In this document: piece after piece, positions 16,262 to 46,010 of the stretch | How the letters are laid out: every line of letters begins with the position of its first letter | Numbering within the stretch: position 1 is the stretch's first letter | Source of the DNA: a virus | Strand: one strand, 5' to 3' | IMG/VR virus record: IMGVR_UViG_3300024261_000009 | Span: 32,001 to 96,000 of that record | DNA: 64,000 nt | Notes under the pieces: model-generated | Databases searched by the model: none | The model's input: only the letters and a program-made list of their open reading frames with translations | Told to the model about the DNA's origin: nothing | Translations under genes and position numbers: made by a program

Positions 16262-17002
16262 TTGTCTACCGTAAAGGTTCTTGGAAGATCCGAAGAGATA
16301 TCCATGTTCCGTAGGTACAGGTCTTCTAGGGATCCTAAACTTAGGAGACTTCTTGTGGAGAGCTGCTTAAAGCTTGTCTTCTCCTTAGCCCGTAAGTACT
16401 GGCTAGACAGGGATCCTGAGTCTCTTCAGGCGTTAATATCCGCAGGAAACGTAGGGCTCATGGAGGCGGTTGACAAATTTGATCCTGACAGAGGAGCTAG
16501 GTTTGCTAGCTATGCTTCCTTCTGGATACTCATGCACGTTAGAACAGAGCTTACGACCCTGCACGACGTTGTTATTCCTTCTTCAAAGGCAAGAAAACTT
16601 CGCATGAGGGCGTCTTCAACAAGGAAAGAGATGGGGATAGAGGAAAGTCCTAGTCCTAGCTCAATGTACTCAAAGCTGGAAGATGTACCTGAGGCTCTGT
16701 CACGATCTACTTGTTCCGACCAAACCACAACTAGTAGTTACGTGCCCGGGCATTCTATACCCGGCGCAGACGTAACCAAGTTGTTTTCCCGTTGGTTTAG
16801 GTTCCTAACTGTCCGGGAACAGTTTGTACTCCGAGCCTACTACGGCCTTCTCGGAGAAGGAGAGGGTTTAAAGCTACGACAAATATCCTCACATTTAGGA
16901 CTCTCGAGTGAGCGGGTTAGGCAAATTAAGGCCTCTGCGCTAACTAAACTTCGCAGGTGGTTTTCCTACGATGGTGTGGATTGTCCTAGTGACGTCATTT
17001 AG
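16262..17002 (+). CDS. Sigma-70 family RNA polymerase sigma factor
   Basis: Region 2: LKLVFSLARKY...GNVGLMEAVDKFDPDRGARFASYASFWI. Region 4: LTVREQFVL...LGLSSERVRQIKASALTKLR. Confidence 0.92.
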   Translation: MSTVKVLGRSEEISMFRRYRSSRDPKLRRLLVESCLKLVFSLARKYWLDRDPESLQALISAGNVGLMEAVDKFDPDRGARFASYASFWILMHVRTELTTLHDVVIPSSKARKLRMRASSTRKEMGIEESPSPSSMYSKLEDVPEALSRSTCSDQTTTSSYVPGHSIPGADVTKLFSRWFRFLTVREQFVLRAYYGLLGEGEGLKLRQISSHLGLSSERVRQIKASALTKLRRWFSYDGVDCPSDVI

Positions 17003-21984: not shown

Positions 21985-22078
21985 ATCGGTAAACCTCCTC
22001 TATAGTTATCGGGAATACAGTGTGTACCAGTCATATACTTATGCCAGCAAAAACGCTTTTATTTAAGGAGGTTTTACC

Positions 22079-23815
22079 ATGCCCTTAGCTGACGATCTGC
22101 TCGGCGTTTCTATAAACACGGCCCGACAGTACCAAGACCCCTTTAAGCTGTGGTCTGGCAATAACACGCCTAAGGATCTTAAATCCCTGTTTAAGTGGAC
22201 TGAATACCTCTACTACAATAGTGCCCAAATATACGCGGGCGTGAAGAAATTCGCTGAATACCCCATTACAGAAATACGTTACTTAACGACCAGTCCAAAA
22301 ATACGCGACCGCTACAAAGAGCTCCTGGAAGAAGTTATTGGGATAAAGAGCTGCTTAATACGCTCCTCCCTAGACCTCCATGTGTACGGGAATAGTTTTT
22401 CTTCCGTCCACATCCCGTTTAAGAGGTTCCTTGTCTGTGACTCCTGCGGTCATAAGTCAGATATAAGAAGCGTTGATTACACGCTAAAGTTAGATAAGCT
22501 AGCTTTCAAGGGACACTGCTCCTCCTGTAACAGCACTCGAAAGATGACCGTTGAGGACCAGCGCATCTTGGACGTGGAAAAAGTTAACCTGATACGGTGG
22601 GACCCTAAGTGCATCACTATCTCCCACAACCCCGTAACGGGGGACAGTCAGTACTACTTAGACGTACCCGAAGACTTGGTCTCCTCAATAAAGAAAGCCG
22701 ACGAACACCTTATAGCGTCAACTCCTTACAGCATACTGCAGGCCGTTTCTGAAGGATCGACTTTTAAGTTCGCTTCCGGGGAACTCTTTCACATGAAGTC
22801 AGATTCCCCCGCAGGGGTTGAGGGCGGGTGGGGCTACCCAAGTCTAATGGCCGCTATGCACCTTTTTTATCACGCGTCAGTTATGCGAAAAGCGAATGAG
22901 GCCATCGCGCTTGAGAGAATTGTTCCTATGCGAATACTTCACCCGGCAGCCACATCGGGTAATGGGGATCCCATCATGTCAATGTCCATCTCTAGTTGGA
23001 TAGACGATATGAAAACTTCTGTAAAAGAATGGAGGAAGGACCCTAACCACATGGTTTTCGCTCCTGTGGCTGTTGGAGTATCTCAGATCGGCGGCGATGC
23101 CCGGGCTCTTATGGTAGACTCAGAAATACAAAGAGCCGAGGACAACATAATAGCATCCATGGGGTTACCTAAGGAGTTCATCTACGGAGGACTGTCCTTT
23201 ACAGGATCCGGAGTCACACTTAGGATGCTAGAAAACCAGCTTGAGAGCTCCCTATTTCAGATAAACAACCTTCTTCAGTGGACCACGGACAAACTCTCTA
23301 AATACCTTAGTTGGGACAGCTGCAAGGTAGCTCTGGGAGACTTTAAAATGGTGGACGATGTGCAACAGAAGGGAATCTTTCTCAACTTGTGGCAGAGCGG
23401 AGTTGTCTCAAAAACAACTCTGGCGGAGGCCAACGGGATAGACCTCGCTGAGGAGCGGGAAAGAATGAAACAAGAGCAGCTTGAAGACGCTCAGTTGCAG
23501 AGGGAGATCCAGATGTCTATACAGGAGATGCAAAACACCTTAGCGGACCAAGCTCGAGCAGAGGTCCAAATGGGTAATCCCGGGCAGCAAGCTCAAGGTT
23601 CTCAGTACGACCAGCAAGCGGTAATAGCCCAGGCAGAGAATATAGCCCTTCAGATGCTACAGATGGACCCCAATATGAGAAGATCTCAGCTGTCCTCACT
23701 GCAGTCAGAAGACTACGTTATGTACTCCGTGGTCATCCAGAGATTAGAACAACTTCAACTGGACCAGAAGAACCAAGCAGCGCAGGCCAACCTGCAGCAG
23801 ATGGGAGTAAACTAG
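22079..23815 (+). CDS. Portal protein with Zn-ribbon insertion
   Basis: 578 aa at the head of the plus-strand virion block with strong RBS AAGGAGG; portal-like segments (LIRWDPKCI, ELFHMK, GWGYPSL); CDSC...CSSC; Gln-rich C-terminus. Assigned by pattern and position. Confidence 0.7.
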   Translation: MPLADDLLGVSINTARQYQDPFKLWSGNNTPKDLKSLFKWTEYLYYNSAQIYAGVKKFAEYPITEIRYLTTSPKIRDRYKELLEEVIGIKSCLIRSSLDLHVYGNSFSSVHIPFKRFLVCDSCGHKSDIRSVDYTLKLDKLAFKGHCSSCNSTRKMTVEDQRILDVEKVNLIRWDPKCITISHNPVTGDSQYYLDVPEDLVSSIKKADEHLIASTPYSILQAVSEGSTFKFASGELFHMKSDSPAGVEGGWGYPSLMAAMHLFYHASVMRKANEAIALERIVPMRILHPAATSGNGDPIMSMSISSWIDDMKTSVKEWRKDPNHMVFAPVAVGVSQIGGDARALMVDSEIQRAEDNIIASMGLPKEFIYGGLSFTGSGVTLRMLENQLESSLFQINNLLQWTTDKLSKYLSWDSCKVALGDFKMVDDVQQKGIFLNLWQSGVVSKTTLAEANGIDLAEERERMKQEQLEDAQLQREIQMSIQEMQNTLADQARAEVQMGNPGQQAQGSQYDQQAVIAQAENIALQMLQMDPNMRRSQLSSLQSEDYVMYSVVIQRLEQLQLDQKNQAAQANLQQMGVN

Positions 23816-23816
23816 T

Positions 23817-24176
23817 ATGTCCTCTAACGACCCTATAAAGGATTTTTCTCAGAGTATAGGGGGAGGACTTGACGCACCGAACCCTTTTAAAGAGGGTTTA
23901 GGGAAGACTAATGGTTTTGAAAAAGACCTATTCGAAGGAACTCCCCATGAGGCTAGTAAGCCTGCGACCCTAAAGTGGCGGCCGAAAGCGCGGGTGTTTA
24001 TCATTGATGAAGACGGCAACGAGGAGTACGAGGACATATTGGCGCAGGGGGCCAACGGGGAAGTCATGTTGGGCCGAAAGGAGATAGTGGATCTTAAAGG
24101 TTCTATTTCCTACAAGGTGTACTTGGAGTGGATGATACCTATTCGACCAGCTAAAAAGAAGCAGACTAACTCGTAG
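23817..24176 (+). CDS. Hypothetical protein
   Basis: 119 aa directly after the portal gene. Confidence 0.6.
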   Translation: MSSNDPIKDFSQSIGGGLDAPNPFKEGLGKTNGFEKDLFEGTPHEASKPATLKWRPKARVFIIDEDGNEEYEDILAQGANGEVMLGRKEIVDLKGSISYKVYLEWMIPIRPAKKKQTNS

Positions 24177-24261
24177 TCTGCTCCTCAAGGACGTCCTTAC
24201 TTTCTTCTCTTTGGCTTAGAACTTAGTTTCTTTAGCGCGCTTCTCTTTGTGTATATTGGTC

Positions 24262-24774
24262 CTACTCGCATCTTAACTCCGTTAAATTATTATTAAGTGC
24301 CTCGGGACTACTAACTGCCGCCTTAAGCAGTTTCCGAGACGTTTCCTCTTTAAGGTCCGCGGTTCTCCTCTGTTTTCTGGACTTTCTACAGGGAGTACAC
24401 ACGGGCCTAACCGCGAGACTACGAAACTTGTTTCCCCGAGCCGAAGCCACGGCGTTGTACCTCTCGACCTGATTTTTCCACCGGAAGAGCATCCCGATGG
24501 TTATGTCTATAAGTGCCTTTTCTCCGGGACACCTAACACAACTAGCCATCCCAACTATAACGTCGGTAGGATCCAGATCTGAGGTTCTTCTATCTATCCA
24601 CTCCCCGCTAGGAGGTTCTGTCATCAGGCCTTCTTCACAGCTTTTCGGAGCGCCCTGCTCCGCAAGAATTCTCGCCAGATAATTATATAAATACACTATT
24701 TTTTGCCTTTCTTTATTGTGGTTAGTGCTATTTGCATGAACACTACATGTGCCTTGCATATACTTGTGACACAA
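24262..24774 (-). CDS. Hypothetical Zn-binding protein (start probably ATG 24624)
   Basis: CVRC and CTPC pairs plus a basic C-terminal helix; the 5' extension lies in AT-rich, promoter-like DNA. Confidence 0.5.
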   Translation of the reverse strand: MCHKYMQGTCSVHANSTNHNKERQKIVYLYNYLARILAEQGAPKSCEEGLMTEPPSGEWIDRRTSDLDPTDVIVGMASCVRCPGEKALIDITIGMLFRWKNQVERYNAVASARGNKFRSLAVRPVCTPCRKSRKQRRTADLKEETSRKLLKAAVSSPEALNNNLTELRCE

Positions 24775-24805
24775 TTAGGGGCGGTATTTTTGCTCCGATG
24801 CCCGC

Positions 24806-27800
24806 TTGGAGACCCTGATGAAAGATTTAACCCCCGTTGTAATGAACCCCTACGACCGTAGGGATAAAATCAGAACCTCCGCCATCCAAGGAGTGGAAAG
24901 CCTATTTCCAATTCTAGGAGACCATAGAGATCTAGAGGTAAACAACCTTCGGGTAGATAAGAAAGACTACTCCGCTTCAGATATAAAGGACGCTGTTTTA
25001 TCTGGGAGAACTCTTGGGGAGCAACTGAAAGCGGACGTGACTATCCGGGATAAAAACGGGCAGGTTATAGACGTAAAAAAGAACCACTCTCTAATGAGAG
25101 TACCCTACTTCACCCCGCAGAACACTTTCGTGGTCAAGGGAAACGAGTACGTAGTTAGACACCAGCTGAGGACTATGCCTGGGGTATACACTCGAAAAAG
25201 AGGGAATGGTGAACTTGAGGCTAGCTTTAACTTAGCTAAGGGCTCCAATTTTCGTCTTAGTATGGACCCGGAAAAAGGTCACATGAACATGGAGTACGGA
25301 TCTTCGAAAATACCCTTGTATCCGGTACTTAGAGGCATGGGAATGACTCACACGGATATATCAAAGCAGTGGGGTTCTGGTGTAGCCAACCAAAACCAGG
25401 ATGCGTTTGACCCTAAGAGGGACAAACACGTAGACCGGCTGTATAAGAAACTGGTACCGCAGAGGAAGGTGGACTCTTCCCTAAATACAGGGGAAAAGGT
25501 TTCTGTTATACTGGATAAGTATTCCAACACACTCTTAGATAAAGAGACTACTAAGAAAACTTTGGGGGAAGCCCACACTAGCGTCACTCCCAGGAGCTTA
25601 CTCGCGGCAAGCAAAAAATTACTGCGAGTATACAAGGGGGAGGCGACCTCGGACGAGAGAGACAGCCTCGAGTACCAGACTCTCCACTCCCCTGAAGATT
25701 TCATCAGGGAACGCTTAGAGCATTCGGGCAGAAATATGCGGTGGAAGTTGAAATCAAAGCTAGACTTAACGTCTAAGCCGGAAATTAGTAAGGTTCTGCC
25801 CTCGTCTACGTTCACAAAGCCTGTGGACTCCTTCATAACCACCTCTCAGATAACCACCTCCCCGACTCAGATAAACCCCATTGCGTTAATTAACGATGCC
25901 AGCAGCATTACCCGATTCGGGGAAGGGGGTATCGGAAGTGAGAGAGCTATCCCCGCGGACGTCCGAACTTTACACGCGTCCCACCTGGGAGCTTTGGACC
26001 CCTTCGGCACTCCAGAGAGCAGCAAATCCGGAGTAGATGTTCGGGCGGCTCAGCATTTATATAAGGATGATAGGGGGCGTCTTCACACCATACTCAAAAA
26101 CGTCAGGACTTCTAAGAACCAGTTTGTTCCCGTGTCGGAAATACCTAGGTCCACTGTGGCGTTTTCTAACCAGAACACCCTTTCGGGTAGTGTGGACGTA
26201 CTGCACAAGGGCAAGGTAACCAAGGTGTCCCCGGGTAAGGTTGATTACCAGGTACCCCACTCCTCGGTTCTATACGGAGTATCGACTAATCTTATACCTT
26301 TCCTAGATTCTACTCAGGGGAACCGGGCAATAATGGCCTCAAAACACGTAGCCCAGGCTGTGCCTCTGATCGGACGAGAAGCGCCTTTAATCCAGGTCGG
26401 GGCCCCCGAAAACAGTGGGTACTCCTCGATAGAGGAACTGGTGGCTAAAACTATCGTCTTGCCCACATCTCCGGTGTCGGGAAGGGTTACGCGCGTAGAC
26501 GATGATTTCATCCATATAAGAGATTCAAAAGGATCTCCCCACAAGGTTGTCCGATTCAAAGACTATCCCCTTGCGTCAAAGACGCATATAAACGAAACAC
26601 CTGTGGTCCGCAGGGGTGATAAAGTAAAGAAGGGCCAGGTTCTTTCTGACAATAACTACACGGTAGACGGGGTCCTAGCCCTGGGCAAAAACCTAAACGT
26701 GGGCTACATGGCCTACAGAGGTTTAAACTCAAATGACGCAGTGGTTATCTCAGATGCAGCCGCGGATAAGCTTACCTCGGAGCATATGGTCAAACGAGTC
26801 CTAGTGCTGGATAACGACCTCTCCCTAGGGGACAAGAAGCACGCGGCAAACTTCGCTTCGAGGTTTACTCGGGATCAGTATAGTAACTTGAAATCCGGCG
26901 TTGTTACTCCAGGAACCGTCTTGAGAAGTGGGGACCCTATAGCAACCGCAGTTAGAAAAGCCCCTCCTAGCGTTGAAAATGAAATGTTTGGTAGGATACA
27001 TAAGTCCTTGAGAAGAGAGTACGTGGACGACAGTCTCGTCTGGGAGGATCCCGAAGACGGAGAGGTTGTTGATGTAAAACAAACGGGCAACAGGTTAGCA
27101 GTAACTATAAAGTCCAAAAAAAGGATGAAGGTTGGTGATAAACTAACGAATCGGTACGGGGCTAAGGGCGTAGTATCTAAAATAATTCCCGATGCAGAGA
27201 TGATCCAGGATGCTTCGGGGAGCCCTATTGACCTACTATGGTCTTCCTCGGGTGTCATAAGTCGAATAAATCCAGGCCAGATTGTGGAGACCGCTGCCGC
27301 TAAGGTGGCTAAGAAGCAGGGCAAACCAATCGTTGTCCAAAACTTTTCCAACAGAGATAACGTTCAGTGGGCCAAAAAGTTACTAAAGGATAATGGCCTA
27401 ACCGACAAGGAAGAGGTTACCGATCCAATCACGGGAAAGAAGATACCAAATATCATGGTGGGTCCTCAGTATGTCTATAAGGGCTTTAAGTCTACGGATA
27501 CTAATTTCTCTGCTCGAGGGGCGGGAGGGTCGTACGACATTAACCAGCAGCCTGGGAGAGGAGGCATCTCTGGTGCCAAGGGGATGGGCAGGATGGAAAT
27601 TAACGGACTGCTTGCACACAACGCACGAGACATCCTAAGGGAAAATGCGGTTATAAAGGGCACCAGAAACACTGAGTACTGGAATGCGGTTAGACTCGGG
27701 CTACCCATCCCTTCTGCGACGGCTCCTTTCGCGCACAATAAGTTTGTTTCTATGCTTACCGGAGCCGGTATGCGAATGAATCGAGAGGGAAACCAGGTCA

Positions 27801-29167
27801 GCATGGCCCCTCTGACAAATAGAGATATAAGGAAGATGTCTTCCGGGGTTATTACTTCCGGGAAGATGGTTCGAGCCAAGGACCTGCGTCCCGAAGCGGG
27901 AGGACTCTTTGACCCTGGCGTGACAGGAGGGTTAACGGGGCAGAAGTGGTCTCACATAGAGTTAGACGAGCCCGTAGTCAGTCCTGTTTACCGGGACAGT
28001 GTCCGAAGAATACTGGGCTTTACTAACACAGAGCTCCAGGATACCGTGGAAAAAAAGGGCGGGGGGTTCATTAGAGAATCTCTTAAGTCTATAGATATCG
28101 ACGGTAAGATAAAATCTCTCACTAGGGAAGTTAGAACCAGATCTCCTGGGTCCTCTCAAGATGATGCTCTTAAGCAACTCAAGGCGTTTAAGGCCTTGAA
28201 GTCCCGAGGCGTTCGGCCCGAGGATGCCTACATTCTGGACGCGTTTCCCGTTTTGCCTCCTCAGTTTAGGCCTATAGTGCCAGGGCCTAAAGGAGACCTC
28301 TTAGTATCCGACGTTAACCACCTGTATAAGGACCTAGCCTTAGCTAATGAAAAGATGAAGGAAGCTAAGTCCTTAGGTCTTCCTGATAAAGATATAGGGG
28401 CCATGAGAGCCCATCTTTCAGACGCTGTTGGAGCTGTCGCGGGGCTTAACGATCCCGTTACCGACAAATCTCGTGCCGCGGCCAAGAAGGGGATTATTAA
28501 TACAATAGCGGGAACAAAAAGAGGCTTTTATAACGGGAAACTTATTAGTAAAAGATTAGATCTAACTGGGAGAGGAACCGCTGCACCAGACCCTTCCCTA
28601 GGTCTGGATGAAGTGGGTCTTCCCGAGGAGATGGCTTGGTCTATGTACCAGCCCTTTACGATAGGTAACCTGGTTAGGAGAGGGCACAAAGCTGTCCGGG
28701 CTAAAGAACTCGTAGAAAATAGGGACCCTATAGCCCGGGAGGCTTTATCTAGAGAGATTTCTCAAAGACCCGTGATTCTTAACAGAGCTCCCAGTCTGCA
28801 TAAGTACAGCCTAGTTTCCGCGTACCCCAAGATGATCCCCGGAAAAACTATAAAGGTTAACCCCTTCATTGAGGCGGGCATGAATTTGGACTACGATGGG
28901 GACGCGCTTCAGTTGCACCTACCAGCAACTCCTGGGGGAGTATCTGATGCTAAGAAGATGTTAATATCGGAAAACATCATGGGAACAAGGAATCGAGACT
29001 CTGTTCAGGTATTTCCAGAACTAGAATCCGTTATTGGACTGTATAAGGGGACAACGGGAACCTCCAGCAGGCCTATGCAAACGTTCTCTTCGCGCCGGGA
29101 GGCACTGGAAGCATACCGTAAGGGAGATATTTCTTTAAAAGACCCTGTAAGGCTAGTAAACGATTAA
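24806..29167 (+). CDS. rpoB/rpoC: Phage multisubunit RNA polymerase: beta fused to N-half of beta-prime (contains the catalytic DxDxD)
   Basis: Beta motifs: FVVKGNEYVVRHQL, HASHLGALDPFGTPE, LIPFLDSTQGNRAIM, VGDKLTNRYGAKGVV, SRINPGQ, GRMEINGL. Beta-prime motifs: WSHIEL, PVLPPQFRP, SKRLDLTGRG, LNRAPSLH, NLDYDGD (28883-28903). Confidence 0.96.
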   Translation: METLMKDLTPVVMNPYDRRDKIRTSAIQGVESLFPILGDHRDLEVNNLRVDKKDYSASDIKDAVLSGRTLGEQLKADVTIRDKNGQVIDVKKNHSLMRVPYFTPQNTFVVKGNEYVVRHQLRTMPGVYTRKRGNGELEASFNLAKGSNFRLSMDPEKGHMNMEYGSSKIPLYPVLRGMGMTHTDISKQWGSGVANQNQDAFDPKRDKHVDRLYKKLVPQRKVDSSLNTGEKVSVILDKYSNTLLDKETTKKTLGEAHTSVTPRSLLAASKKLLRVYKGEATSDERDSLEYQTLHSPEDFIRERLEHSGRNMRWKLKSKLDLTSKPEISKVLPSSTFTKPVDSFITTSQITTSPTQINPIALINDASSITRFGEGGIGSERAIPADVRTLHASHLGALDPFGTPESSKSGVDVRAAQHLYKDDRGRLHTILKNVRTSKNQFVPVSEIPRSTVAFSNQNTLSGSVDVLHKGKVTKVSPGKVDYQVPHSSVLYGVSTNLIPFLDSTQGNRAIMASKHVAQAVPLIGREAPLIQVGAPENSGYSSIEELVAKTIVLPTSPVSGRVTRVDDDFIHIRDSKGSPHKVVRFKDYPLASKTHINETPVVRRGDKVKKGQVLSDNNYTVDGVLALGKNLNVGYMAYRGLNSNDAVVISDAAADKLTSEHMVKRVLVLDNDLSLGDKKHAANFASRFTRDQYSNLKSGVVTPGTVLRSGDPIATAVRKAPPSVENEMFGRIHKSLRREYVDDSLVWEDPEDGEVVDVKQTGNRLAVTIKSKKRMKVGDKLTNRYGAKGVVSKIIPDAEMIQDASGSPIDLLWSSSGVISRINPGQIVETAAAKVAKKQGKPIVVQNFSNRDNVQWAKKLLKDNGLTDKEEVTDPITGKKIPNIMVGPQYVYKGFKSTDTNFSARGAGGSYDINQQPGRGGISGAKGMGRMEINGLLAHNARDILRENAVIKGTRNTEYWNAVRLGLPIPSATAPFAHNKFVSMLTGAGMRMNREGNQVSMAPLTNRDIRKMSSGVITSGKMVRAKDLRPEAGGLFDPGVTGGLTGQKWSHIELDEPVVSPVYRDSVRRILGFTNTELQDTVEKKGGGFIRESLKSIDIDGKIKSLTREVRTRSPGSSQDDALKQLKAFKALKSRGVRPEDAYILDAFPVLPPQFRPIVPGPKGDLLVSDVNHLYKDLALANEKMKEAKSLGLPDKDIGAMRAHLSDAVGAVAGLNDPVTDKSRAAAKKGIINTIAGTKRGFYNGKLISKRLDLTGRGTAAPDPSLGLDEVGLPEEMAWSMYQPFTIGNLVRRGHKAVRAKELVENRDPIAREALSREISQRPVILNRAPSLHKYSLVSAYPKMIPGKTIKVNPFIEAGMNLDYDGDALQLHLPATPGGVSDAKKMLISENIMGTRNRDSVQVFPELESVIGLYKGTTGTSSRPMQTFSSRREALEAYRKGDISLKDPVRLVND

Positions 29168-29219
29168 CTGGTAATGCAAACCTCGTAGTCCTATTTTAAA
29201 ACAGTCAGGAGAATATGAA

Positions 29220-29693
29220 ATGTCGCAACCCAAGTTAATACCACTAGTCCTGCTTTTCGCAACCCTATCGGTCCCTTTCGTAGCCACATCCCAAGACGGG
29301 GGCGCTAATGATTCCGGTACAGCCTCCTCTGCGGGCGAAGAATCTCCAGTGACAACAGCGCTTGGAGATCCCGAAACTGTAGAGCAGGCAATCCAATTAG
29401 TGTCTCAAGCCTTTGACATGGCCCTAGCGGGCCAGTGGCTCTTGCTAGCAATACTCCTGATACAGCTGGGGGTGTTCCTCATCAAAAGATACGCTCCGAG
29501 CGGTTACATGAAGGCCTGGGGGTCCGTTACTGTGGGCGCTCTGGCGGCTTTGATAGCAGTCCTATCCGGCTTATCCGGGGGATTGTCTTGGCAGGAATGC
29601 CTCGTAGTGTTCCTCTCGGGCCCGGCCTCGTCTCTAGCAGTAGACTTCTTGCACGCTATGGGCTGGCTTAAAAGAAAGACTCTCGATGCTTAG
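29220..29693 (+). CDS. Membrane protein (signal peptide + about 3-4 TM; possibly holin-like)
   Basis: Hydrophobic N-terminus, low-complexity linker, several hydrophobic helices, basic C-terminus; RBS AGGAG. Confidence 0.55.
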   Translation: MSQPKLIPLVLLFATLSVPFVATSQDGGANDSGTASSAGEESPVTTALGDPETVEQAIQLVSQAFDMALAGQWLLLAILLIQLGVFLIKRYAPSGYMKAWGSVTVGALAALIAVLSGLSGGLSWQECLVVFLSGPASSLAVDFLHAMGWLKRKTLDA

Positions 29694-29943
29694 TACTGCG
29701 TATAAAATCGGTAGTGTCACCGCTGTTGCTGACTTTCTAGCTAAGGCAGCCTCCTCGGAAACCTCTGAGTCGGGGGTGGCGGAAAACTTCATTGCCCGGA
29801 TCAACCAAATAACAGTGGGCTCTTCTGAAGAAGATGCCTCTCAGGCCAAACGAACGGGGAATGAGGTGTCTGCCTCAAGCCCCTCAACACGTCAAGCGGT
29901 AAGCTGGACGTCTCCCACGATAATTCATTCTGGAAGGCCTTAG
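29686..29943 (+). CDS. Small putative internal head protein (AYKxG leader)
   Basis: MLSTAYKIGS...FLAKAAS. Confidence 0.55.
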   Translation: MLSTAYKIGSVTAVADFLAKAASSETSESGVAENFIARINQITVGSSEEDASQAKRTGNEVSASSPSTRQAVSWTSPTIIHSGRP

Positions 29944-29946
29944 TAA

Positions 29947-30720
29947 ATGCTTAGTAGAGCCTACAAAGCCGGAAGTTACGAAGCTGAAGAGGCCTTTCTC
30001 GAGCGGCTATCCGGGGACCCGTCCTTTGAAAAGGTATCGTGGGCGGCACTCCGTACTATAGGATCCTCCCTCATGGGTACTGGGGCTAGGGCAGGGACAT
30101 CCTCAATAATGTCCGGCGTGGGCTCCGGAGCAAGGGCTGCTTGGGGTGCGGGCATGGCATCCAGACCCGTGTCTGCAGCTAAGTTCATGTTAGGCATGGG
30201 CGGAAAAACTAGGCTTGGAAAGAACCTCTCTTTTTGGGGAGCTTCTCCACTAACCTTCGGGGGTGTTGGTGCCGCTACGGCCGAAGAGGGAGAGAGGGGC
30301 GAAGCCTTCATGAAGGGTGTCGCTGGCGGCCTACTGTTCAACGTAGGTATGCGCGGAGGGGAAAAACTAGTGGGTGGGGGCTTACTGAAGGCCCTGAAAC
30401 CTAAGGCGGGCATTGGGTTGAACGCTTTTACAAAGCACACCGCAAAGAGTGTAAAAGCACACAAGGGTCTTATGCCAAAGGGGGTCCCGCCCCCGCAAGC
30501 AGGAGAATACGCCGTTGGTTTTAAACAGCTGGGAGCGGCGGATAAGTTACGGAGAGGCTCGGTAGCTACGGGCACCGCTCTCGGCGGGATGGCAGGCGGC
30601 TTCGGACTTTCGATGGCAGCAGACCCCCTGGTGAACATTTTCTCTAAGAAGAACGTTCCCTACAAGGTCCCTCCAATGACACACGTAAATAACCCGTATA
30701 ACCCGGTATACTACAGGTGA
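29947..30720 (+). CDS. Gly-zipper putative internal/ejection protein (AYKxG leader)
   Basis: MLSRAYKAGS...FEKVS; GxxxG-rich hydrophobic stretches. Confidence 0.6.
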   Translation: MLSRAYKAGSYEAEEAFLERLSGDPSFEKVSWAALRTIGSSLMGTGARAGTSSIMSGVGSGARAAWGAGMASRPVSAAKFMLGMGGKTRLGKNLSFWGASPLTFGGVGAATAEEGERGEAFMKGVAGGLLFNVGMRGGEKLVGGGLLKALKPKAGIGLNAFTKHTAKSVKAHKGLMPKGVPPPQAGEYAVGFKQLGAADKLRRGSVATGTALGGMAGGFGLSMAADPLVNIFSKKNVPYKVPPMTHVNNPYNPVYYR

Positions 30721-30724
30721 GTAG

Positions 30725-31081
30725 ATGTTAGATATTGCATACAGGATAGGTTCTCGAAGGGCAGAAGAGGAGGCTCTTTTAAAGCATTCCTCGCTGGCTA
30801 AGAGTTTAGCAGCAGCAGGCGTGTCCGGGAGCGTTATAGGTTCCGTAGGAAGCCAGTTGAGTTCCAGAGATGACGGTTCCCTATTCCTAGACCCCAAGCA
30901 GGTGTCCGGCCAGGCTATCACAGAGGGGGCCGCTACAGGACTAGGCGCAATGGGGGGGTTAGCCGCGGGTAGAACCTTCGGAAAAGGCTTTTGGCCCAGC
31001 GTTCTGGGAATGGCTCTGGGAGGTACTATAGCCCCTACCGCTGTAAGAAACCTAGGTTCGAGTAGAAACAATGTCTATTAG
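30725..31081 (+). CDS. Gly-zipper putative internal/ejection protein (AYRxG leader)
   Basis: MLDIAYRIGS; GAATGLGAMGGLAAG and LGMALGGTIA. Confidence 0.6.
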   Translation: MLDIAYRIGSRRAEEEALLKHSSLAKSLAAAGVSGSVIGSVGSQLSSRDDGSLFLDPKQVSGQAITEGAATGLGAMGGLAAGRTFGKGFWPSVLGMALGGTIAPTAVRNLGSSRNNVY

Positions 31082-32849
31082 TGGGCCTCTAGGGAGTGTA
31101 TTGGTCAACTCACTGCTTCCCGAAGTTCACCGAATTTCGGGGCCTCTGGATAAGAAAAACCTTCGGACCAGTTTAAAAGAGTACGCGCGTAAAGACCCAA
31201 GAGGGTACGCCGAAAAAGTTACGGATATTAAGAATCTGGGGGATGAGTTTGCTACTTACGAGGGCGTGTCCGTCGGCCTAGACGATATAGAACCTCAGTA
31301 CAGGGTCCGGGACCCTATCCTGAAGAACGCTCGAAAACAGTTCTGGTCGGCAAAGTCCGAGGACGAAAAGACTAAGGTGCTCCTAGCAACGCAAGATAAG
31401 CTGAAGGGCATAACTGGGTCCCACCCGGGCGACTTGGGTCTTATGGCTCGTTCCGGGGGTCGGGGAAACTTGGCTCAGATGATGAAGGCAACAGCCTCCC
31501 CTGTGGTGATTGGCGATTACCACGGAGCGCCGGTTCCCTACTTAATATCGAGGGGCTACTCGGAAGGACTAGCTCCAGCAGAGCATTGGATAGCGGGAGA
31601 CGAGAGTCGCGCTCAGGTTATTAAGGGTCAGTTAGGGACGGCGGACCCTGGGGAACTTGGGAATATAATGGCCGCAATGATGTCCTCTCAGGTTATCTCG
31701 TCAGAAGACTGTGGGACAGACAATGGGCTTCTACTAAAGTCTGGGGATACAAACTCTCTAGGCCGGTTTGAGGCGGGAACGAACAGAATAGTAGACTCCC
31801 GGATATTAAAAGCTGTAGGTAGGACCGGGGGCATTAAAGTTCGCTCCCCAATGACCTGCGAGCTCCCCTCTGGAGTGTGCAAAAAGTGTCAGGGAACGAA
31901 CAACTACGGAGAACTCGAGGAAATAGGTTCCAACGTAGGAGTAGCTTCTGCCCAAGCTTTGGGTGAACCTCTAACCCAACTAACGCTGTCTTCAAAGCAC
32001 GGTATAAGTTTTGTTGAAGGGGATCGGGATATACCCCGAGGCGTGGCTGCAGTTAGACAATTTCTAGAGACGCCCTCTTCCTTTATGGCCAAGGCAACTT
32101 TGGCCCAGAACAACGGAACGGTTACTCATATAAGCAGGGCCCCTCAAGGGGGGCACGATATTAATGTCTCAGGCACCTCTCACTATGTCCCTCCCAGTAG
32201 GGGTATACGAGTGTCAGTTGGCGACAGAGTATCCCCCGGGGACACTCTAACTAACGGGGTCCCGTCTCCGGTGGAAGTCGTTAAGTACAAGGGTTTGGGA
32301 GAAGGTCGAAAGTATCTTACGGATGCGATGCATAAGGTTTACGGGGACTCCGGAGTAAATATAGACAAGCGTCACCTAGAGAACTTGGTGAAAGCCCAGT
32401 TAGGGTACTACAAGGTAACAGGAAGCGGCATAGGACAGCACCTACCTGGAGAAGTGATAACCTCTAAGGAGGTAGAAGCGGCCTACCAGGTGAGAGCTAA
32501 AAAGTTTCCAGTATCCGGGGCAAGCGGTAAAATATTAGCTAAGCAGACTCTCCACCACCTCCCAGGGACTCCTATAGACTCCGGAATGGTCAACCAGTTT
32601 AGAGAGGCGAAACTTCCATCTGTTTACGCGGTGGAGGAGGACCCGAACGTGGAGCCCTTCGTTACTTCGGCTTCAAGGGTTCCGCTGCTAAATCCTGACT
32701 GGCTCCAGAGACTCGGACATAGATACCAAAAGGATACTCTGCTTCAGGCAGCTAACTACGGGGAAAAGTCAGACATACACTCGCATAATCCAGTCCCAGC
32801 CCTTATTTTCGGTACAGAGATAAGAAAAGGACCTGAAGGGAAGTACTAA
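31071..32849 (+). CDS. rpoC: Phage RNA polymerase beta-prime C-terminal half (bridge helix, trigger loop, jaw)
   Basis: RSGGRGN (SGARG), YSEGL...GTADPGEL bridge helix, EDCGT, VRSPMTC..GVCKKCQG, VGVASAQALGEPLTQLTLSSKH trigger loop, IDKRHLENLV. Confidence 0.95.
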   Translation: MSISGPLGSVLVNSLLPEVHRISGPLDKKNLRTSLKEYARKDPRGYAEKVTDIKNLGDEFATYEGVSVGLDDIEPQYRVRDPILKNARKQFWSAKSEDEKTKVLLATQDKLKGITGSHPGDLGLMARSGGRGNLAQMMKATASPVVIGDYHGAPVPYLISRGYSEGLAPAEHWIAGDESRAQVIKGQLGTADPGELGNIMAAMMSSQVISSEDCGTDNGLLLKSGDTNSLGRFEAGTNRIVDSRILKAVGRTGGIKVRSPMTCELPSGVCKKCQGTNNYGELEEIGSNVGVASAQALGEPLTQLTLSSKHGISFVEGDRDIPRGVAAVRQFLETPSSFMAKATLAQNNGTVTHISRAPQGGHDINVSGTSHYVPPSRGIRVSVGDRVSPGDTLTNGVPSPVEVVKYKGLGEGRKYLTDAMHKVYGDSGVNIDKRHLENLVKAQLGYYKVTGSGIGQHLPGEVITSKEVEAAYQVRAKKFPVSGASGKILAKQTLHHLPGTPIDSGMVNQFREAKLPSVYAVEEDPNVEPFVTSASRVPLLNPDWLQRLGHRYQKDTLLQAANYGEKSDIHSHNPVPALIFGTEIRKGPEGKY

Positions 32850-32851
32850 CA

Positions 32852-33676
32852 ATGAACCTCGTAGATCTAGTGGCGATGCCCGATAGTTTTGATAAGACCT
32901 CCTCCGTAGCCCAAAGCGCGTTAGGCAGGATACTGCTTGGCAACAAAAACCTGACAAAGGCCCAGCTTAGAGAAGGTAGGAAGTACGTTACTAGAAGCGG
33001 TTATGAGAAGTTGGACCCTAACAAGGGCATGATTAGGTCCCTCTTGATGGGGTCCGGGAAAAACCCGCTCAAGACCCTGGGGGCTAGGTTTCGTCAAGGG
33101 GGCGTCTTGGGTAAGGGCGGACTTCTAAGGGGAGAAATGGCCTTGAACCCCCTATTGTCAAGGAGCTACCTAAGAATTAAGCGGGGCGGGGGAACTGCGG
33201 CGGACTATAAAAACCTGGCAGTTTACGGAGGTGGGGGTGGCGCTATGAATGCTCTTCTTGTTGGGCTCCCTGCAGCGTCTATTTACAGCTCAGCAACAGA
33301 CCCGAATGTCCGAGCTCCTGGAGCGTCCGTTGGGATGGAGCTAGGAACAACCCTAGGATACCTCTTAGGGGGTCCTCTCGGTGCTATAGGCTCAATTGGA
33401 GCAGGCATGGCCGGAGGTTTTTCTGGGGGTTACGTAGGATCCCACTTAGACGGCAAGCCTATACAGCAGGTTAGTGACTTCGCGGATATCCCCGCAGGGC
33501 CCTATAATAGAGTAAGCAATTACCAAGAATCCTTATACGATCCTTACCAGAATCGGTACGGCGGTCCGGGTTCCTATACCAGCGTGGGACTTGCCCCTTT
33601 ACCCCAGCAAAACGCATATAGTTACGAATTAAGTCCTGAAAATGGCAATAATGGTCTTGCACTAGGCAGCTATTAG
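32852..33676 (+). CDS. Gly-zipper putative internal/ejection protein
   Basis: N-terminal SFDKTSS; basic N-half; GTTLGYLLGGPLGAIGSIGAGMAGGFSGG. Confidence 0.6.
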   Translation: MNLVDLVAMPDSFDKTSSVAQSALGRILLGNKNLTKAQLREGRKYVTRSGYEKLDPNKGMIRSLLMGSGKNPLKTLGARFRQGGVLGKGGLLRGEMALNPLLSRSYLRIKRGGGTAADYKNLAVYGGGGGAMNALLVGLPAASIYSSATDPNVRAPGASVGMELGTTLGYLLGGPLGAIGSIGAGMAGGFSGGYVGSHLDGKPIQQVSDFADIPAGPYNRVSNYQESLYDPYQNRYGGPGSYTSVGLAPLPQQNAYSYELSPENGNNGLALGSY

Positions 33677-33765
33677 GTACATCCTTCCAGAGGTTATATT
33701 TAAACGAGGGGGAAGTACGCCCCCGCTAAGTACAGAACGCCCCCAAGGGCTGAGGAGAACCGCTA

Positions 33766-34815
33766 ATGAGCGTTATTTTTAAGGTAGCTTACGCGCGTGG
33801 CGTACAGAACGCCCTGGTTAACACCGGTGCAATCGGTAAGTACGCAAACGAAGAAATGGCTGATGTTGCTGCGGAGATAGCAGCAGAGGAGATGTCCGAG
33901 GACGTTGAGCCTGTTGAGGGTCCCGTTGCTGCTGACGAAACAGCAGATGTTGCTGCTAAGCTCATAGAGCTTTCCCAGGCATCTTCGGAGACTGCAGAAG
34001 CAGCTGCAGAGCAAGCTGATGTTGCTGCTGAAGCAGCGGCGGCCGTAGCCTCTATGAAGGCTGCTTCTTCTGAGCTTGTTCATGCATCCGGAGGAGGCGC
34101 GCTGGCACCGAACACGATAACCTCGGCAGCCGCAATAACCGCAGAAGGCTCTATGGAAGCCGCAGCTCGACCTGAAGGATACGCGGAGAACCGACCCTCT
34201 CCCCAGGCTCCTTCAGCCCAACAGGGTATACAGCAACCCCACCCGGGAGCTATGACAACCACTGACGTAACTAAGGGAGCTTCCGCAGCGGCGATTCTGC
34301 GAAAGTTAGCCGAAGGAGACTTCGATCATACGACCGGTGGTGCGGGACCCAACGCTGTTGAAGACGCCCCCTCTGCCGAAGGAAAGATGGAAGCAGCAGC
34401 TCGACCTTCAGGTTACGCTGAGACAGGGCCCGCAGTAAGCGAGCCTGTAGCCCAGCAAGGCGAAGAGCAAGCCCACCCCGGATCACCCACAGGCGAAACT
34501 CTCGAGGGTAAGGTTGCCTCTGCGTTTGACGTCCTGTTCAACAAGACAGCTGAGGAAGTGGTTCCTCACCTTCCCTATGGGCTGACACAAGAGCAAAAGG
34601 TTGCCGCAGTTCGAACCATGATAGGTATGACCACGCCAGAACGCGCACAGTACATATCAAGAATCAAATCTGCTATGGAGTCCGAGGACGAAATGTCTGA
34701 GGAGGAGCGACAAGGAGCCAAGGAAGTCGCTGAAGAAGTTGTGGAGGAAAAGTTAGACGGGGAGGAAGCTAAGGAAGCTGCCGCTATTCTTCGACGTCTA
34801 GGCTTTGGTGTCTAG
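33766..34815 (+). CDS. Acidic Ala-rich core/scaffold-like protein with internal duplication
   Basis: 10 of 14 Lys are in K-x-A; AEGxMEAAARPxGYAE repeated; AAAILR(K/R)L occurs twice; RBS GAGGAG. Confidence 0.65.
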   Translation: MSVIFKVAYARGVQNALVNTGAIGKYANEEMADVAAEIAAEEMSEDVEPVEGPVAADETADVAAKLIELSQASSETAEAAAEQADVAAEAAAAVASMKAASSELVHASGGGALAPNTITSAAAITAEGSMEAAARPEGYAENRPSPQAPSAQQGIQQPHPGAMTTTDVTKGASAAAILRKLAEGDFDHTTGGAGPNAVEDAPSAEGKMEAAARPSGYAETGPAVSEPVAQQGEEQAHPGSPTGETLEGKVASAFDVLFNKTAEEVVPHLPYGLTQEQKVAAVRTMIGMTTPERAQYISRIKSAMESEDEMSEEERQGAKEVAEEVVEEKLDGEEAKEAAAILRRLGFGV

Positions 34816-34873: not shown

Positions 34874-35542
34874 ATGCCCTCTGAATTAAGTTTAGCCGAT
34901 TACCTGTCGGCAAATCCCGCCACCCAAAGTGGGAGTATAAAGAGCACTCCTGGTTTGAGGTTCGGTGACCTGGCCTCAAACCCAGGCGTCTCTAAGTTCC
35001 TTAACGCCTTAGGCGGAAGCCCCGAACTATCCCCCGAGATAAAAGCTTTAGCTATAAAGTACCTCGAACAAGACCCTACTCTTAGGGACATGGAGATAGG
35101 AAAAGTTCCTAAGGGGAGAGACGCCTTTAACTGGGGAACGGGAAGACTCGCCGTTAGTAGTCCAGACCCAGATATACTATCTCACGAGGCTTCCCACGCA
35201 AAGATGTTACGGGAAGAGAGTCTTTATAGAGACATACTAGGTATGTCTAAACGCATAGTAGGGCTAAATAATCTAGCTAGTATTCCCGCTATTCTAGGAA
35301 TAAGATCATTTCTCGGGGATTCTGACACAGGAAATACTATCTTAAAGACACTGGCGGGGGCGTCCATATTGGCGGCAGCCCCCAATATTATAGAAGAGAC
35401 AAGAGCTACAGCGGAGGCTTTGGCTAAAAGTGACGATAAGTTAAGAACGGCTATAGCGTTGGGGCCTGGTCTGGCTTCACACTACGCGCATGACTTAGTC
35501 GCTCCAACAGCCTACTATTTGGCAGGAAGTAAACTGGATTAG
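34874..35542 (+). CDS. Putative virion Zn metallopeptidase (HExxH...E)
   Basis: ILSHEASHA, downstream IIEETRAT, hydrophobic helices in between. Confidence 0.65.
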   Translation: MPSELSLADYLSANPATQSGSIKSTPGLRFGDLASNPGVSKFLNALGGSPELSPEIKALAIKYLEQDPTLRDMEIGKVPKGRDAFNWGTGRLAVSSPDPDILSHEASHAKMLREESLYRDILGMSKRIVGLNNLASIPAILGIRSFLGDSDTGNTILKTLAGASILAAAPNIIEETRATAEALAKSDDKLRTAIALGPGLASHYAHDLVAPTAYYLAGSKLD

Positions 35543-40731: not shown

Positions 40732-42501
40732 TTGGATAAAATCATAGAAGTGTCGAAGATGCTATCTTCCAAGCATCTTATGACCCTAGAACCCTCTGTA
40801 CAAATAATCACTCCCGGGACTTCCAGGGGGCTATCTGAAAAAGTAGCCTCTGAGGCGGCCTCGTGGGCTAGACAGGTTACGCCTGAGCCTGGGAAGACCT
40901 TTATCCTGGTGTTAGCTCTGGGTGCCAGCGAATACTACGGTCCTAACAGAAACGGCGATGGGTTTAAGGACTCAGAACTTAGAAAGTCCTACAAGACTTT
41001 TGAGGATCTGGCGCATGTGTACATGCACCACAAGAATAAGGATCCAGAGAAGTCTGTTGGGTCTGTGGTGAAGTCTTTCTATAACCCAGATATGCGCCGA
41101 GTCGAGCTGATACTTAAGCTCGATAATAAAAAGGCTCCAGACGTAGCGGATAAAATAGCCAAGGGGCAAACTGTAGCGGTAAGCATGGGCTGTAGGATAA
41201 AGAAAGACGTGTGCTCTATCTGCGGACACGAGGCTGCGAACAGATCGCAGTACTGTGACCATGCTAAATTTCAAATGAACGACATCCTCCCAGACGGCAG
41301 GATTGTGTTTGTGGACAACCCTAGTCCTAAATTCTTCGATATTTCCATTGTTTGGAGACCCGCGGATAAGACAGGTTACATGCTAAAAAAGGTTGCCTAT
41401 GACATGTCTCAGAGGGATGTCGGAGAACCCTCAACTGTCCTAGCCGAAAAGCTTGCTCGAAAGAACGTGCTCAGCTCCTACATACAGAAAGCCGCTGATA
41501 TAGATAAAATAGTACAGGGCATAGGCTTTGGTGCACCCCAGGAAGAGAGAGGACGAAGTCTTCATAGCGAGTGGCTTAAGCACATTGTTCCTAAGATAGT
41601 GTCGGACTATAAGCCCCTGGCTAACCGGGACCTAAAATGGTTGTCCGGAAAAAGTTTTCCTAAGGTACTAAAAGCCTTGTCAAGTATGGGAATCCTACTA
41701 ACGACGCCAGAGTTCCTAAACCTTTTCTTTATGAAAACGACGGGCAAGCCTGCGCCAGAAGGAGCGGCTGATAAACTAGTGGCCCTTCAGGGCGACATTT
41801 TTGACCTGATGGCTAACCACCCAGAACTTACTGAGGTGGTGGTTAACTCAGGAGTCCTCCCAGAGGAAGGGGAGACAAAGGAAGCAGAATTACTGAGCAG
41901 GATGGGCAAGTACTATAGTAGCAGGTCTCTGGAGAAAGATAACCTCTTAAAGAAGAGTGCGTCTATAACGTATACTCCTATGACTCCCCGACTTAGCGAG
42001 TACATGAATAAAGCCCGACTAGAGGGGGACATGGCCACCCTTACATATACTGATCCAAACTCAGGCAAGGTTCACTACACCGATAGAGGTTCTGCTAGAG
42101 CGGCTCGTAGCGCTCGTAAGGAACAGGCTAAACTACTGGGCTCCTTGGGAGCGGCTGCTATGAGTTTAATAGCTTACCGAGGTCTCAGAGGTCTGGGTCG
42201 GGCTCGAGCGGCCGCCCCTGTAGGCCTTATTGGTGGTAGTACAGGCCTCGGGATATATGGGGCAACTACCGCGGGCAAGAAAATTAGGACCGACCAAGGC
42301 GTATTAGTTGACCCATCGTTAACTTTTAATGTTAAACAGGGATCGGCCAAATTAAGTCTTGCCTTATCGATAGATTACGCGCGTAATGGCTCGATAAAGA
42401 CGGCCTCAACTTCTAACGGACTAAGGGACTTGGTGGGTTCGTCCGAAGATTTAGATTTCAATTTCGTGGCCCAGAGCATTGGAAGGGCTATTTTAGAATA
42501 A
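40732..42501 (+). CDS. Prohead (maturation) protease with long C-terminal extension
   Basis: GPNRNGDGF, HVYMHH (catalytic His), VAVSMGC (catalytic Ser), CSICG...YCDH, FFDISIV..PAD: HK97/assemblin-type fold. Located upstream of the scaffold and MCP genes. Confidence 0.8.
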   Translation: MDKIIEVSKMLSSKHLMTLEPSVQIITPGTSRGLSEKVASEAASWARQVTPEPGKTFILVLALGASEYYGPNRNGDGFKDSELRKSYKTFEDLAHVYMHHKNKDPEKSVGSVVKSFYNPDMRRVELILKLDNKKAPDVADKIAKGQTVAVSMGCRIKKDVCSICGHEAANRSQYCDHAKFQMNDILPDGRIVFVDNPSPKFFDISIVWRPADKTGYMLKKVAYDMSQRDVGEPSTVLAEKLARKNVLSSYIQKAADIDKIVQGIGFGAPQEERGRSLHSEWLKHIVPKIVSDYKPLANRDLKWLSGKSFPKVLKALSSMGILLTTPEFLNLFFMKTTGKPAPEGAADKLVALQGDIFDLMANHPELTEVVVNSGVLPEEGETKEAELLSRMGKYYSSRSLEKDNLLKKSASITYTPMTPRLSEYMNKARLEGDMATLTYTDPNSGKVHYTDRGSARAARSARKEQAKLLGSLGAAAMSLIAYRGLRGLGRARAAAPVGLIGGSTGLGIYGATTAGKKIRTDQGVLVDPSLTFNVKQGSAKLSLALSIDYARNGSIKTASTSNGLRDLVGSSEDLDFNFVAQSIGRAILE

Positions 42502-45092: not shown

Positions 45093-46010
45093 ATGCCAAA
45101 GATTGAGACATCTGAGCTCAGTGCTCAGTTCATAAATCAAAATTTCGTTCGTAAGCTCGAGGAAGGCCGCACTAAAGAAGCGGCTGACGAAGGCTCACGA
45201 TTTATTCGTTCTAAGATGCGTCAAGACTCGTTCGCTCGAGAAATCCTTGAACCCGTTGAGTTGGGTCCAGACGAGATCGACCGAGACGAGAACACTGACC
45301 AGCCTAAGAAGATCATCGAGAAGGAGCCGGATAGCACAGCGACTTTCGCTACTTTTAAGGGCACAGGCCAGCGGACCTTCTTCAAGGGTCCACGCTACTC
45401 TGTTCCTTTTGGTAAGGTAGAGAGCCAGCACTTCACGAAGTCGAAGTTTGAACTTCTGACTTACCAGAACGATATCCGCAAGATCTTGACCGATAACTCG
45501 GTTAAGGACATGGCTGAGCAAGAAGACCAGAAGTTCATGGATCTTGTAAATGCTGCTATTGGTGTTAGTTCTAACAGTGCAAACGGTGGTGCTGATTTCA
45601 ACGGTGCTGGTCACATCAAGCAAGGTATCCAAATGCTGCTTAATAAGCAGATCCCTTGTGGTAAGATCCTCATGAGTAAGCATCTGTACTATGAGATCCT
45701 GGATTGGACTCAGACGACCTTCGGGGACACAGTTGCTGGTCGTCACTATGACGATGGCATCGAGGGTGAGAAAACACTCTTTGGTTTCCCTGTTATCACG
45801 ACTATCCGACGTGACATGCTCAAGGTCAATAATGATGACGCGATGTACTTCTTCGCTCCAGAGAATTACCTCGGTAATTTCTTCTTGTTGCAAGATGCTA
45901 CCCTGTTCATCAAACAGGAAGCGGACATGATCGAATTCTGGAGCTATAGCGCCCCAGGCATCGGCATCGGTAATACCAACGCAGTTGCTCGAGTGATTGT
46001 TAAAGACTAA
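45093..46010 (+). CDS. Major capsid protein (HK97 fold, short encapsulin-like type)
   Basis: 305 aa, RBS AAGGAG, optimised codons, follows the protease/scaffold genes and precedes a strong terminator; capsid-like C-terminus (EFWSYSAPGIGIGN). Confidence 0.75.
   Translation: MPKIETSELSAQFINQNFVRKLEEGRTKEAADEGSRFIRSKMRQDSFAREILEPVELGPDEIDRDENTDQPKKIIEKEPDSTATFATFKGTGQRTFFKGPRYSVPFGKVESQHFTKSKFELLTYQNDIRKILTDNSVKDMAEQEDQKFMDLVNAAIGVSSNSANGGADFNGAGHIKQGIQMLLNKQIPCGKILMSKHLYYEILDWTQTTFGDTVAGRHYDDGIEGEKTLFGFPVITTIRRDMLKVNNDDAMYFFAPENYLGNFFLLQDATLFIKQEADMIEFWSYSAPGIGIGNTNAVARVIVKD

Follow-up and report, generated by a model that had tools for sequence, protein, structure and literature searches.

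In this study, we examined a pair of RNA polymerase genes on a 64,000-nucleotide stretch of marine phage DNA (hereafter the window), which covers positions 32001-96000 of the 117-kb IMG/VR record IMGVR_UViG_3300024261_000009, a record estimated by CheckV to be 73% complete. The first gene joins beta to the front of beta-prime in one reading frame, and the second, which begins 1903 nt past the stop of the first (29167), encodes the rest of beta-prime. Judged from their sequences, the two chains quite probably assemble into one catalytic core, that of a bacterial-type multisubunit RNA polymerase belonging to the phage itself. Proteins were compared with Pfam, PHROG, PADLOC and the ESM Atlas, and with the PDB by phmmer, while the gap between the two polymerase genes was searched against Rfam. 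Three bacterial rpoB/rpoC products served as the alignment reference, and gene surroundings were compared across 80 related loci. The polymerase features of the window are the following.

24818..29167, + strand: beta::beta-prime-N fusion gene, 1449 amino acids (aa); Pfam, PDB phmmer and a 100% identical database protein, P0003 (1449 aa)
27773..27811, + strand: fusion junction, residues ~990-1002; alignment with the three bacterial rpoB/rpoC products
27899..27964, + strand: beta-prime zinc-ribbon deletion site, GGLFDPGVTGGLTGQKWSHIEL; alignment, no Cys in the fusion protein
28883..28903, + strand: catalytic metal-binding loop NLDYDGD (bacterial NADFDGD), residues 1360-1366; alignment
31071..32849, + strand: beta-prime-C gene, 592 aa; Pfam Rpb1 domain 5 and alignment to bacterial beta-prime

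The open frame of the fusion gene spans 24806-29167 (+ strand, 1453 codons) and opens at a TTG at 24806. Its real start is most likely the ATG at 24818, which is preceded by GGAG seven bases 5′ of it and yields a product with the length of P0003. Within this one frame, Pfam detects Rpb2 domains 2, 3 and 6 (residues 153-919) followed by Rpb1 domains 1 and 2 (residues 1098-1386), with E-values of 1.4e-47 for Rpb2_6 and 5.6e-22 for Rpb1_2. Against the PDB, residues 25-975 match cyanobacterial beta in a single stretch (2e-65) and residues 1083-1450 match residues 179-548 of E. coli beta-prime (2e-48). That the best beta matches are cyanobacterial probably reflects missing lineage insertions rather than cyanobacterial ancestry. 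The chain thus covers all of beta, together with beta-prime to about E. coli residue 550. An earlier reading of this DNA (the original prediction) had described a complete beta followed by beta-prime in one frame through NLDYDGD, and both Pfam and phmmer confirm this. It had further placed both double-psi barrels on a single chain; Rpb2_6 and Rpb1_2 do occur in the same protein, and by homology both barrels are assigned to the fusion chain. The arrangement had also been called permuted, a term we do not retain: the segments keep the order of bacterial rpoB-rpoC, and all that has changed is where the chains begin and end, beta now being fused to beta-prime and a new break following the beta-prime barrel.

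At the residue level, the parts of the active centre held by this chain are intact. All three aspartates of NLDYDGD (D1362, D1364 and D1366) are invariant across 20 homologues, as is the beta-barrel lysine motif GDK...GxKG, present as GDKLTNRYGAKG and aligned with bacterial GDKxAGRHGNKG. The beta-prime clamp helices, which bind sigma in bacteria, likewise align well. Most positions of the rifampicin-resistance cluster differ from those of two bacterial sequences in the alignment. Because the residues at known E. coli resistance positions mostly differ, and nearly all pocket residues appear to be replaced, the enzyme is predicted to be insensitive to rifampicin.

The junction, first placed near 27780, falls at ~27773-27811 in our alignment. 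Here the end of beta (...GMRMNREG) is joined directly to beta-prime (NQVSMAPLT...), with loss of the bacterial beta C-terminal tail and of the first ~15 beta-prime residues. Deletion of the beta-prime zinc ribbon is borne out as well, in that the ~30 residues with four cysteines present in the three bacterial beta-primes have given way to a short Gly-rich loop, in a fusion protein with zero cysteines. The description of a minimal core fits an enzyme that is slimmed down and has its first zinc ribbon missing. As to the N-terminal lobes of beta, they are shorter as had been claimed, but only mildly so, the beta part having ~55 residues less than cyanobacterial beta over the aligned range.

The second chain, beta-prime-C, matches Rpb1_5 (Pfam E-value 1.2e-17) and aligns with residues 638-1096 of B. 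subtilis beta-prime. It contains the bridge helix, the second zinc site, a trigger loop free of insertions and the C-terminal conserved region. Its cysteines number exactly four (214, 263, 270 and 273) and lie at the positions of the second zinc site. Residues of the bridge helix and trigger loop are more divergent in beta-prime-C than in relatives in which the polymerase is a single chain (see below). Open reading frames (ORFs) and Pfam together uphold the account of a chain that ends before the bridge helix and restarts ~1.9 kb later, with four unrelated small genes between.

The break between the chains is clean and has cost no residues: the end of the first and the start of the second lie within a few residues of contiguous positions in the one-chain relatives. 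It sits directly ahead of the conserved TTxGR...LP motif, in a loop of differing length among bacteria. Cyanobacteria and plastids also carry a split beta-prime (gamma/RpoC1 plus RpoC2), broken in the same loop region after the catalytic barrel although not at the identical peptide bond. Fusion residue 1444 aligns with residue 551 of the 624 of cyanobacterial gamma, which runs ~64 residues further, while beta-prime-C residue 38 aligns with RpoC2 residue 27, which puts the RpoC2 start at about phage-chain residue 11. The two breaks lie near each other, within about 10-20 residues. Unlike in the window, cyanobacterial beta stays a separate chain. A review puts the beta-prime break of phiKZ-type polymerases at that site too, following the barrel (PMC7598289). 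Because the phage, cyanobacterial and phiKZ-type breaks all fall in it, the variable loop after the barrel appears from these alignments to be a recurrently used, permissive break site.

Neither the fusion nor the split is confined to the window. An alignment-based scan found 400 IMG/VR stretches encoding a relative of the fusion protein, and more than 120 protein clusters of ~1450 aa with 45-67% identity and the same Pfam architecture occur in JGI, ENA, Logan, Tara and NCBI collections. Wherever a kept locus had sufficient downstream DNA, the beta-prime-C gene followed in the same orientation, after a gap of 0.58-5.7 kb. A homologue of the portal gene is conserved upstream of the polymerase in 77 related loci. 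By tblastn against GenBank phages, a full-length fusion is also encoded by the cultured Salmonella phage Arash and by Vibrio phages D69, D148 and D181 (~33% identity). Arash (OQ632216) has the same two-chain partition, with Gp206 of 1525 aa (annotated 'RNA polymerase subunit beta') and Gp216 of 606 aa; gp206 directly follows the portal region, with the portal gene gp204 close on its 5′ side as in the window, and a sigma gene lies ~9 kb upstream. The window shares this Arash-type layout of a ~1450-1525 aa chain, a downstream chain of ~590-610 aa and an adjoining portal gene. It differs in what separates the chains, with nine genes in Arash, most of them on the opposite strand, and four on the same strand in the window. 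Vibrio phages D69 (OZ195729), D148 (OZ196545) and D181 (OZ196140) share the partition as well; their genes carry only hypothetical annotations, and a homing endonuclease interrupts the fusion gene of D148 and D181. The Arash paper names the two proteins 'beta' and 'beta-prime' and leaves the fusion unmentioned (PMC10585845).

Selfish elements recur in this gene. Many homologues of 1800-2900 aa carry intein and LAGLIDADG domains (P0008, P0063, P0075, P0082, P0098 and P0122), and further cases are found in L039, L046-L048, L052, L078 and L081 besides the two Vibrio phages D181 and D148. The fusion gene is a hotspot for such elements.

Some relatives lack the split. The four most distant IMG/VR relatives (L084-L087; 35-37% identity) encode beta and the whole of beta-prime in a single ORF of 2018-2159 aa. 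One-chain polymerases such as those of IMGVR_UViG_3300031576_000004 and 3300028914_000059 share with the window the junction, the zinc-ribbon deletion and the head-module context; they differ in having no break after the barrel and in keeping the canonical NADFDGD. When the beta-prime-N part was searched with HMMER against 1.84 billion representatives, the top list consisted entirely of the fused/split family: ~1450-aa forms in which the match ends at the C-terminus, many one-chain forms of 2000-2100 aa, and longer forms, several with an intein or LAGLIDADG domain. A further group of ~1200-aa representatives (P0190, P0191, P0198, P0209 and P0222) has its beta-prime-N match at residues 200-630, which suggests another partition, in which a C-terminal piece of beta is joined to a whole beta-prime.

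A first maximum-likelihood tree was built from 55 sequences and 1399 columns and rooted on three bacterial beta plus beta-prime concatenates, taken from the host genomes of metagenome-assembled genomes (MAGs) whose contigs carried the phage gene. In it, all 26 split forms, Arash, D69 and the window among them, make up one clade (SH-aLRT 97, a branch-support value) nested in a grade of one-chain forms. This nesting was unchanged in a second tree with thinned rows and two polymerase sets added from mReC, a group of phage-encoded polymerases. Since one change explains the distribution on the tree, these data indicate that the split is secondary and arose once, from a one-chain ancestor. The trees contained no cyanobacterial sequence, and their sampling (one mReC genome, three bacteria) gives no placement of the fused family relative to Bacteria as a whole.

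To discern how such an enzyme might work, its likely partners and its genomic setting have to be considered. The relevant features are these.

16262..17002, + strand: sigma-70-family factor, likely the specificity subunit, 246 aa; Pfam Sigma70_r2 and r4 above cut-off, PHROG 5.5e-31
G000:C1:2113-2529, - strand: second sigma gene, outside the window; Pfam
22079..23815, + strand: portal protein; weak PHROG match, homologue in the 77 related loci, Arash gp204
40732..42501, + strand: head maturation protease, bounding the head-gene block that holds the polymerase genes
45093-46010: weak match to a major head protein

The sigma factor encoded in the window is homologous to Arash gp196 (5e-15). At least one sigma was found in each of five complete or near-complete family genomes, namely Arash, D69, a 160.9-kb genome with terminal repeats, a 197.8-kb genome and a one-chain member. 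Alpha (PF01000) had no match in these five or in the record of the window, and for omega the record gave only a sub-threshold match of 12.5 bits within a 633-aa frame, which we took as chance. The polymerase genes themselves sit between those for the portal and the head maturation protease. In purified virions of Arash, Gp206 yielded the most spectra of all proteins (3516), exceeding the major capsid protein, while Gp216 yielded 1210 and the sigma Gp10 467 (PMC10585845). Because of the location in the head block and the Arash virion proteome, packaging and co-injection is likely to be the mode in which the enzyme is used.

From these elements we propose the following mechanism. Chain 1, carrying beta and beta-prime past the catalytic barrel, would pair with chain 2, carrying the rest of beta-prime. 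The covalent link between beta and beta-prime would take over the role of the alpha dimer as assembly platform, and the phage sigma would guide the enzyme to phage promoters. Loaded in the capsid and delivered with the DNA, the enzyme could then begin transcription without host polymerase. The full picture, of a self-assembling, alpha-independent polymerase, single-chained in the deep branches and two-chained in the split clade, with its own sigma and injected with the DNA, and of a break kept as an expression slot for fast-changing, co-transcribed cargo, is one we put forward tentatively, giving it somewhat less than an even chance.

Several points weigh against the proposed mechanism. The sigma of the window is not a homologue of the virion-detected Arash sigma Gp10, and the case for packaging draws on one proteome, from a relative with 33% identity. 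Two-chain assembly and activity are predictions for the phage of the window, and none of the sequencing runs listed as holding the stretch, as found by a run search, was of RNA. An alpha-like or other subunit could be encoded in the missing part of the record, an alpha analogue could escape Pfam, or host alpha could be used. The trees come from a quick search under a site-homogeneous model with three bacterial outgroups and one mReC genome.

The foremost alternative is that the polymerase is real and yet has no place in the virion, being made after infection for middle or late transcription, as the non-virion polymerase of phiKZ-type phages is, while the host enzyme, perhaps redirected by the phage sigmas, reads the early genes. 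The Arash authors themselves allow that enzymes abundant during infection may contaminate particles (PMC10585845). The two phage sigmas could, moreover, serve the host core instead, and the 117-kb record holds only one polymerase set, versus the separate virion and non-virion enzymes of phiKZ-type phages. Speaking for packaging, the spectral count of Gp206 in purified Arash virions is above that of the major capsid protein, and the genes lie inside the head block with the portal gene adjoining in 77 loci. We consider the non-virion alternative possible, although on balance unlikely.

A hybrid enzyme, in which host alpha (and omega) complete the two phage chains, appears less probable again. 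It would account for the failure to find alpha or omega on the phage side, and an alpha-like platform is present in every cellular polymerase of such type (PMC7598289). Nevertheless, the non-virion cores of phiKZ and AR9 function without alpha (PMC7598289), a packaged enzyme would need to bring host alpha into the capsid, and the covalent link may well remove the main need for a platform. We therefore regard a hybrid as rather improbable.

Membership of the published mReC lineage, which the original prediction had raised, is not supported by our comparisons. There is a general likeness, mReC polymerases being phage-encoded, cellular-type, compact beta/beta-prime enzymes from environmental metagenomes (PMC7481178). 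However, mReC beta (997-1521 aa) and beta-prime (899-1391 aa) are encoded by separate genes (Weinheimer and Aylward 2020, PMC7481178), and the examined parts of the RNA polymerase table in its supplement list no ~1450-aa beta paired with a ~590-aa beta-prime. Six metagenome IDs holding fused-family contigs are absent from that table (Supplementary Data 2). For a direct comparison, a bacterial beta-prime alignment used as probe for mReC returned only bacterial-like contigs; the mReC1 contig of 149,482 bp (IMGVR_UViG_3300017989_000062) was recovered from IMG/VR with a back-translated NADFDGDQM pattern. It encodes two sets (L240 and L241), a beta-prime of 1005 aa with a beta of 1371 aa and a beta-prime of 900 aa with a beta of 1069 aa, with beta-prime upstream of beta in both, the reverse of bacterial rpoB-rpoC. 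Some mReC contigs carry two polymerase sets, in contrast to the one in the record of the window. By BLAST, the window enzyme scores 192-266 bits against bacterial subunits and 83-163 bits against mReC1, and the second tree, with one mReC genome in it, sets the fused family apart from both mReC1 sets as a fully supported clade of its own. With gene order, partition, similarity and clade all differing, it is very unlikely that the enzyme belongs to mReC.

What lies between the two chains bears on a further alternative. The gap is filled by four tightly packed genes (29220..31081), the last of which the beta-prime-C start overlaps by 11 nt.

29220-29693, + strand: orphan gap gene 1, 157 aa; AGGAG before the ATG at 29220
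29686-29943, + strand: orphan gap gene 2, 85 aa
29947-30720, + strand: orphan gap gene 3, 257 aa
30725-31081, + strand: orphan gap gene 4, 118 aa

None of the four matched Pfam, PHROG or PADLOC, and the ESM Atlas, searched with the 257-aa product only, gave weak unnamed matches and no convincing family. Among the 80 related loci, three of the genes have zero homologues and the fourth has some in only three loci. The gaps of relatives hold wholly different genes, including those for ferritin-like proteins, GIY-YIG/NUMOD3 homing endonucleases, endonuclease VII, PTH2 and acetyltransferases. In 13-17 related loci, the gap holds one gene of ~500 aa encoding a LigD primase-polymerase and LigD 3′-phosphoesterase (L024:14359-15945, with the same position in L027, L031, L033, L038, L041, L042, L051, L058, L072 and others), which sites an end-joining-type repair module inside the polymerase operon. 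The gap is a variable cargo island, and its genes are not conserved polymerase subunits. Mobile DNA may have made the break, an idea that the occasional homing endonucleases in the gap fit and do not prove.

Could the two chains instead come from a single gene into which a spliced element (an intron, or a trans-acting split intein) has been inserted, so that one mature chain results? The frequency of inteins and homing endonucleases in the fusion-gene family speaks for this. Rfam, on the other hand, found no match in the gap and hence no intron there, no intein-like extra residues or room for split-intein halves are seen at the break, and the four gap ORFs have their own ribosome-binding sites. 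Gap contents differ wholly among relatives, and the Arash proteomics shows two separate proteins. We give a spliced gene barely any credence.

The layout itself was checked against independent data. Logan contigs from four independent seawater runs (four studies) are 100% identical to the stretch and cross the fusion junction (27750-27965 and 27698-27848), the fusion-gene stop with the next start (29146-29514) and the start of beta-prime-C (30725-31097 and 31014-31400). Fusion, stop and restart are each crossed, and the concern that the layout could be an assembly artefact is thereby answered: it is real. An assembly error or recent disabling mutation (a pseudogene) is thus close to inconceivable, given these identical contigs and hundreds of loci at 35-67% identity with the same boundaries and invariant catalytic residues.

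Set beside known systems, a colinear fusion is not without cellular precedent. Helicobacter and Wolbachia have a fused rpoB-rpoC in which a single frame runs from the end of beta into the start of beta-prime, in the order of the rpoBC operon, as here. Their enzymes are cellular and possess a full-length beta-prime, the zinc ribbon, alpha and omega, and they lack a second break. The phiKZ/AR9-type polymerases differ in another direction, in that their beta is also split, they act without sigma and they are far more divergent, whereas in the window beta is intact and fused and a sigma is present. Singly, then, a beta/beta-prime fusion, a break after the barrel (cyanobacteria, plastids, phiKZ-type) and phage multisubunit polymerases are already known. 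The full-text literature outside subscription journals yielded no description of their combination: a bacterial-type core with a sigma and without alpha, built as one chain or as a re-partitioned pair and encoded among the head genes of a very large family of phages. Nor did it yield one of the fusion-plus-split layout.

Some features around the polymerase genes are worth recording. Three genes 3′ of beta-prime-C (33766-34815, 34874-35542 and 35546-37576) are conserved in 14-42 related loci without a match to a known family, and in Arash the gene after beta-prime-C encodes a virion-detected 'DNA helicase'; the three could be further packaged or polymerase-associated proteins. On the 5′ side, the 640 nt before the fusion gene (24177-24817) contain just one ORF, on the minus strand (24262-24774, 170 aa), which lacks homologues in the 80 related loci; this stretch may be regulatory instead of coding. 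A promoter and terminator scan of 21800-34000 gave counts no higher than in shuffled sequence. Near 22 kb, gene orientation turns from - to +, the AT skew changes sign and the cumulative GC skew has its minimum (window ~21000-24000). This is a divergent transcription point and possibly a replication origin. Lastly, a scan of genome contigs returned six MAG contigs carrying the phage gene, including L088 (169,868 bp), L089 (130,957 bp) and L090, in bins assigned to Gemmatimonadaceae, Acidimicrobiaceae and Mailhella. L088 and L089 are sized like whole phage genomes of the fused/split family. The three probably represent phage DNA wrongly binned with bacterial MAGs, or they could be hints at hosts.

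In conclusion, an alpha-like platform has been thought necessary to join the two large subunits of such polymerases, and the fused family appears to manage without alpha. Its similarity to bacterial enzymes (E about 1e-65) allows confident modelling, and a dependence on sigma is probably kept. As a compact and presumably sigma-dependent enzyme, it lends itself to structural and synthetic studies. The cultured members, Arash and Vibrio phages D69, D148 and D181, make these ideas directly testable. One-chain, two-chain and possibly further-split forms, together with those carrying inteins, show at which points the polymerase can be fused or broken. Alongside the phiKZ type and mReC, the family represents a third, very common lineage of phage multisubunit RNA polymerases.

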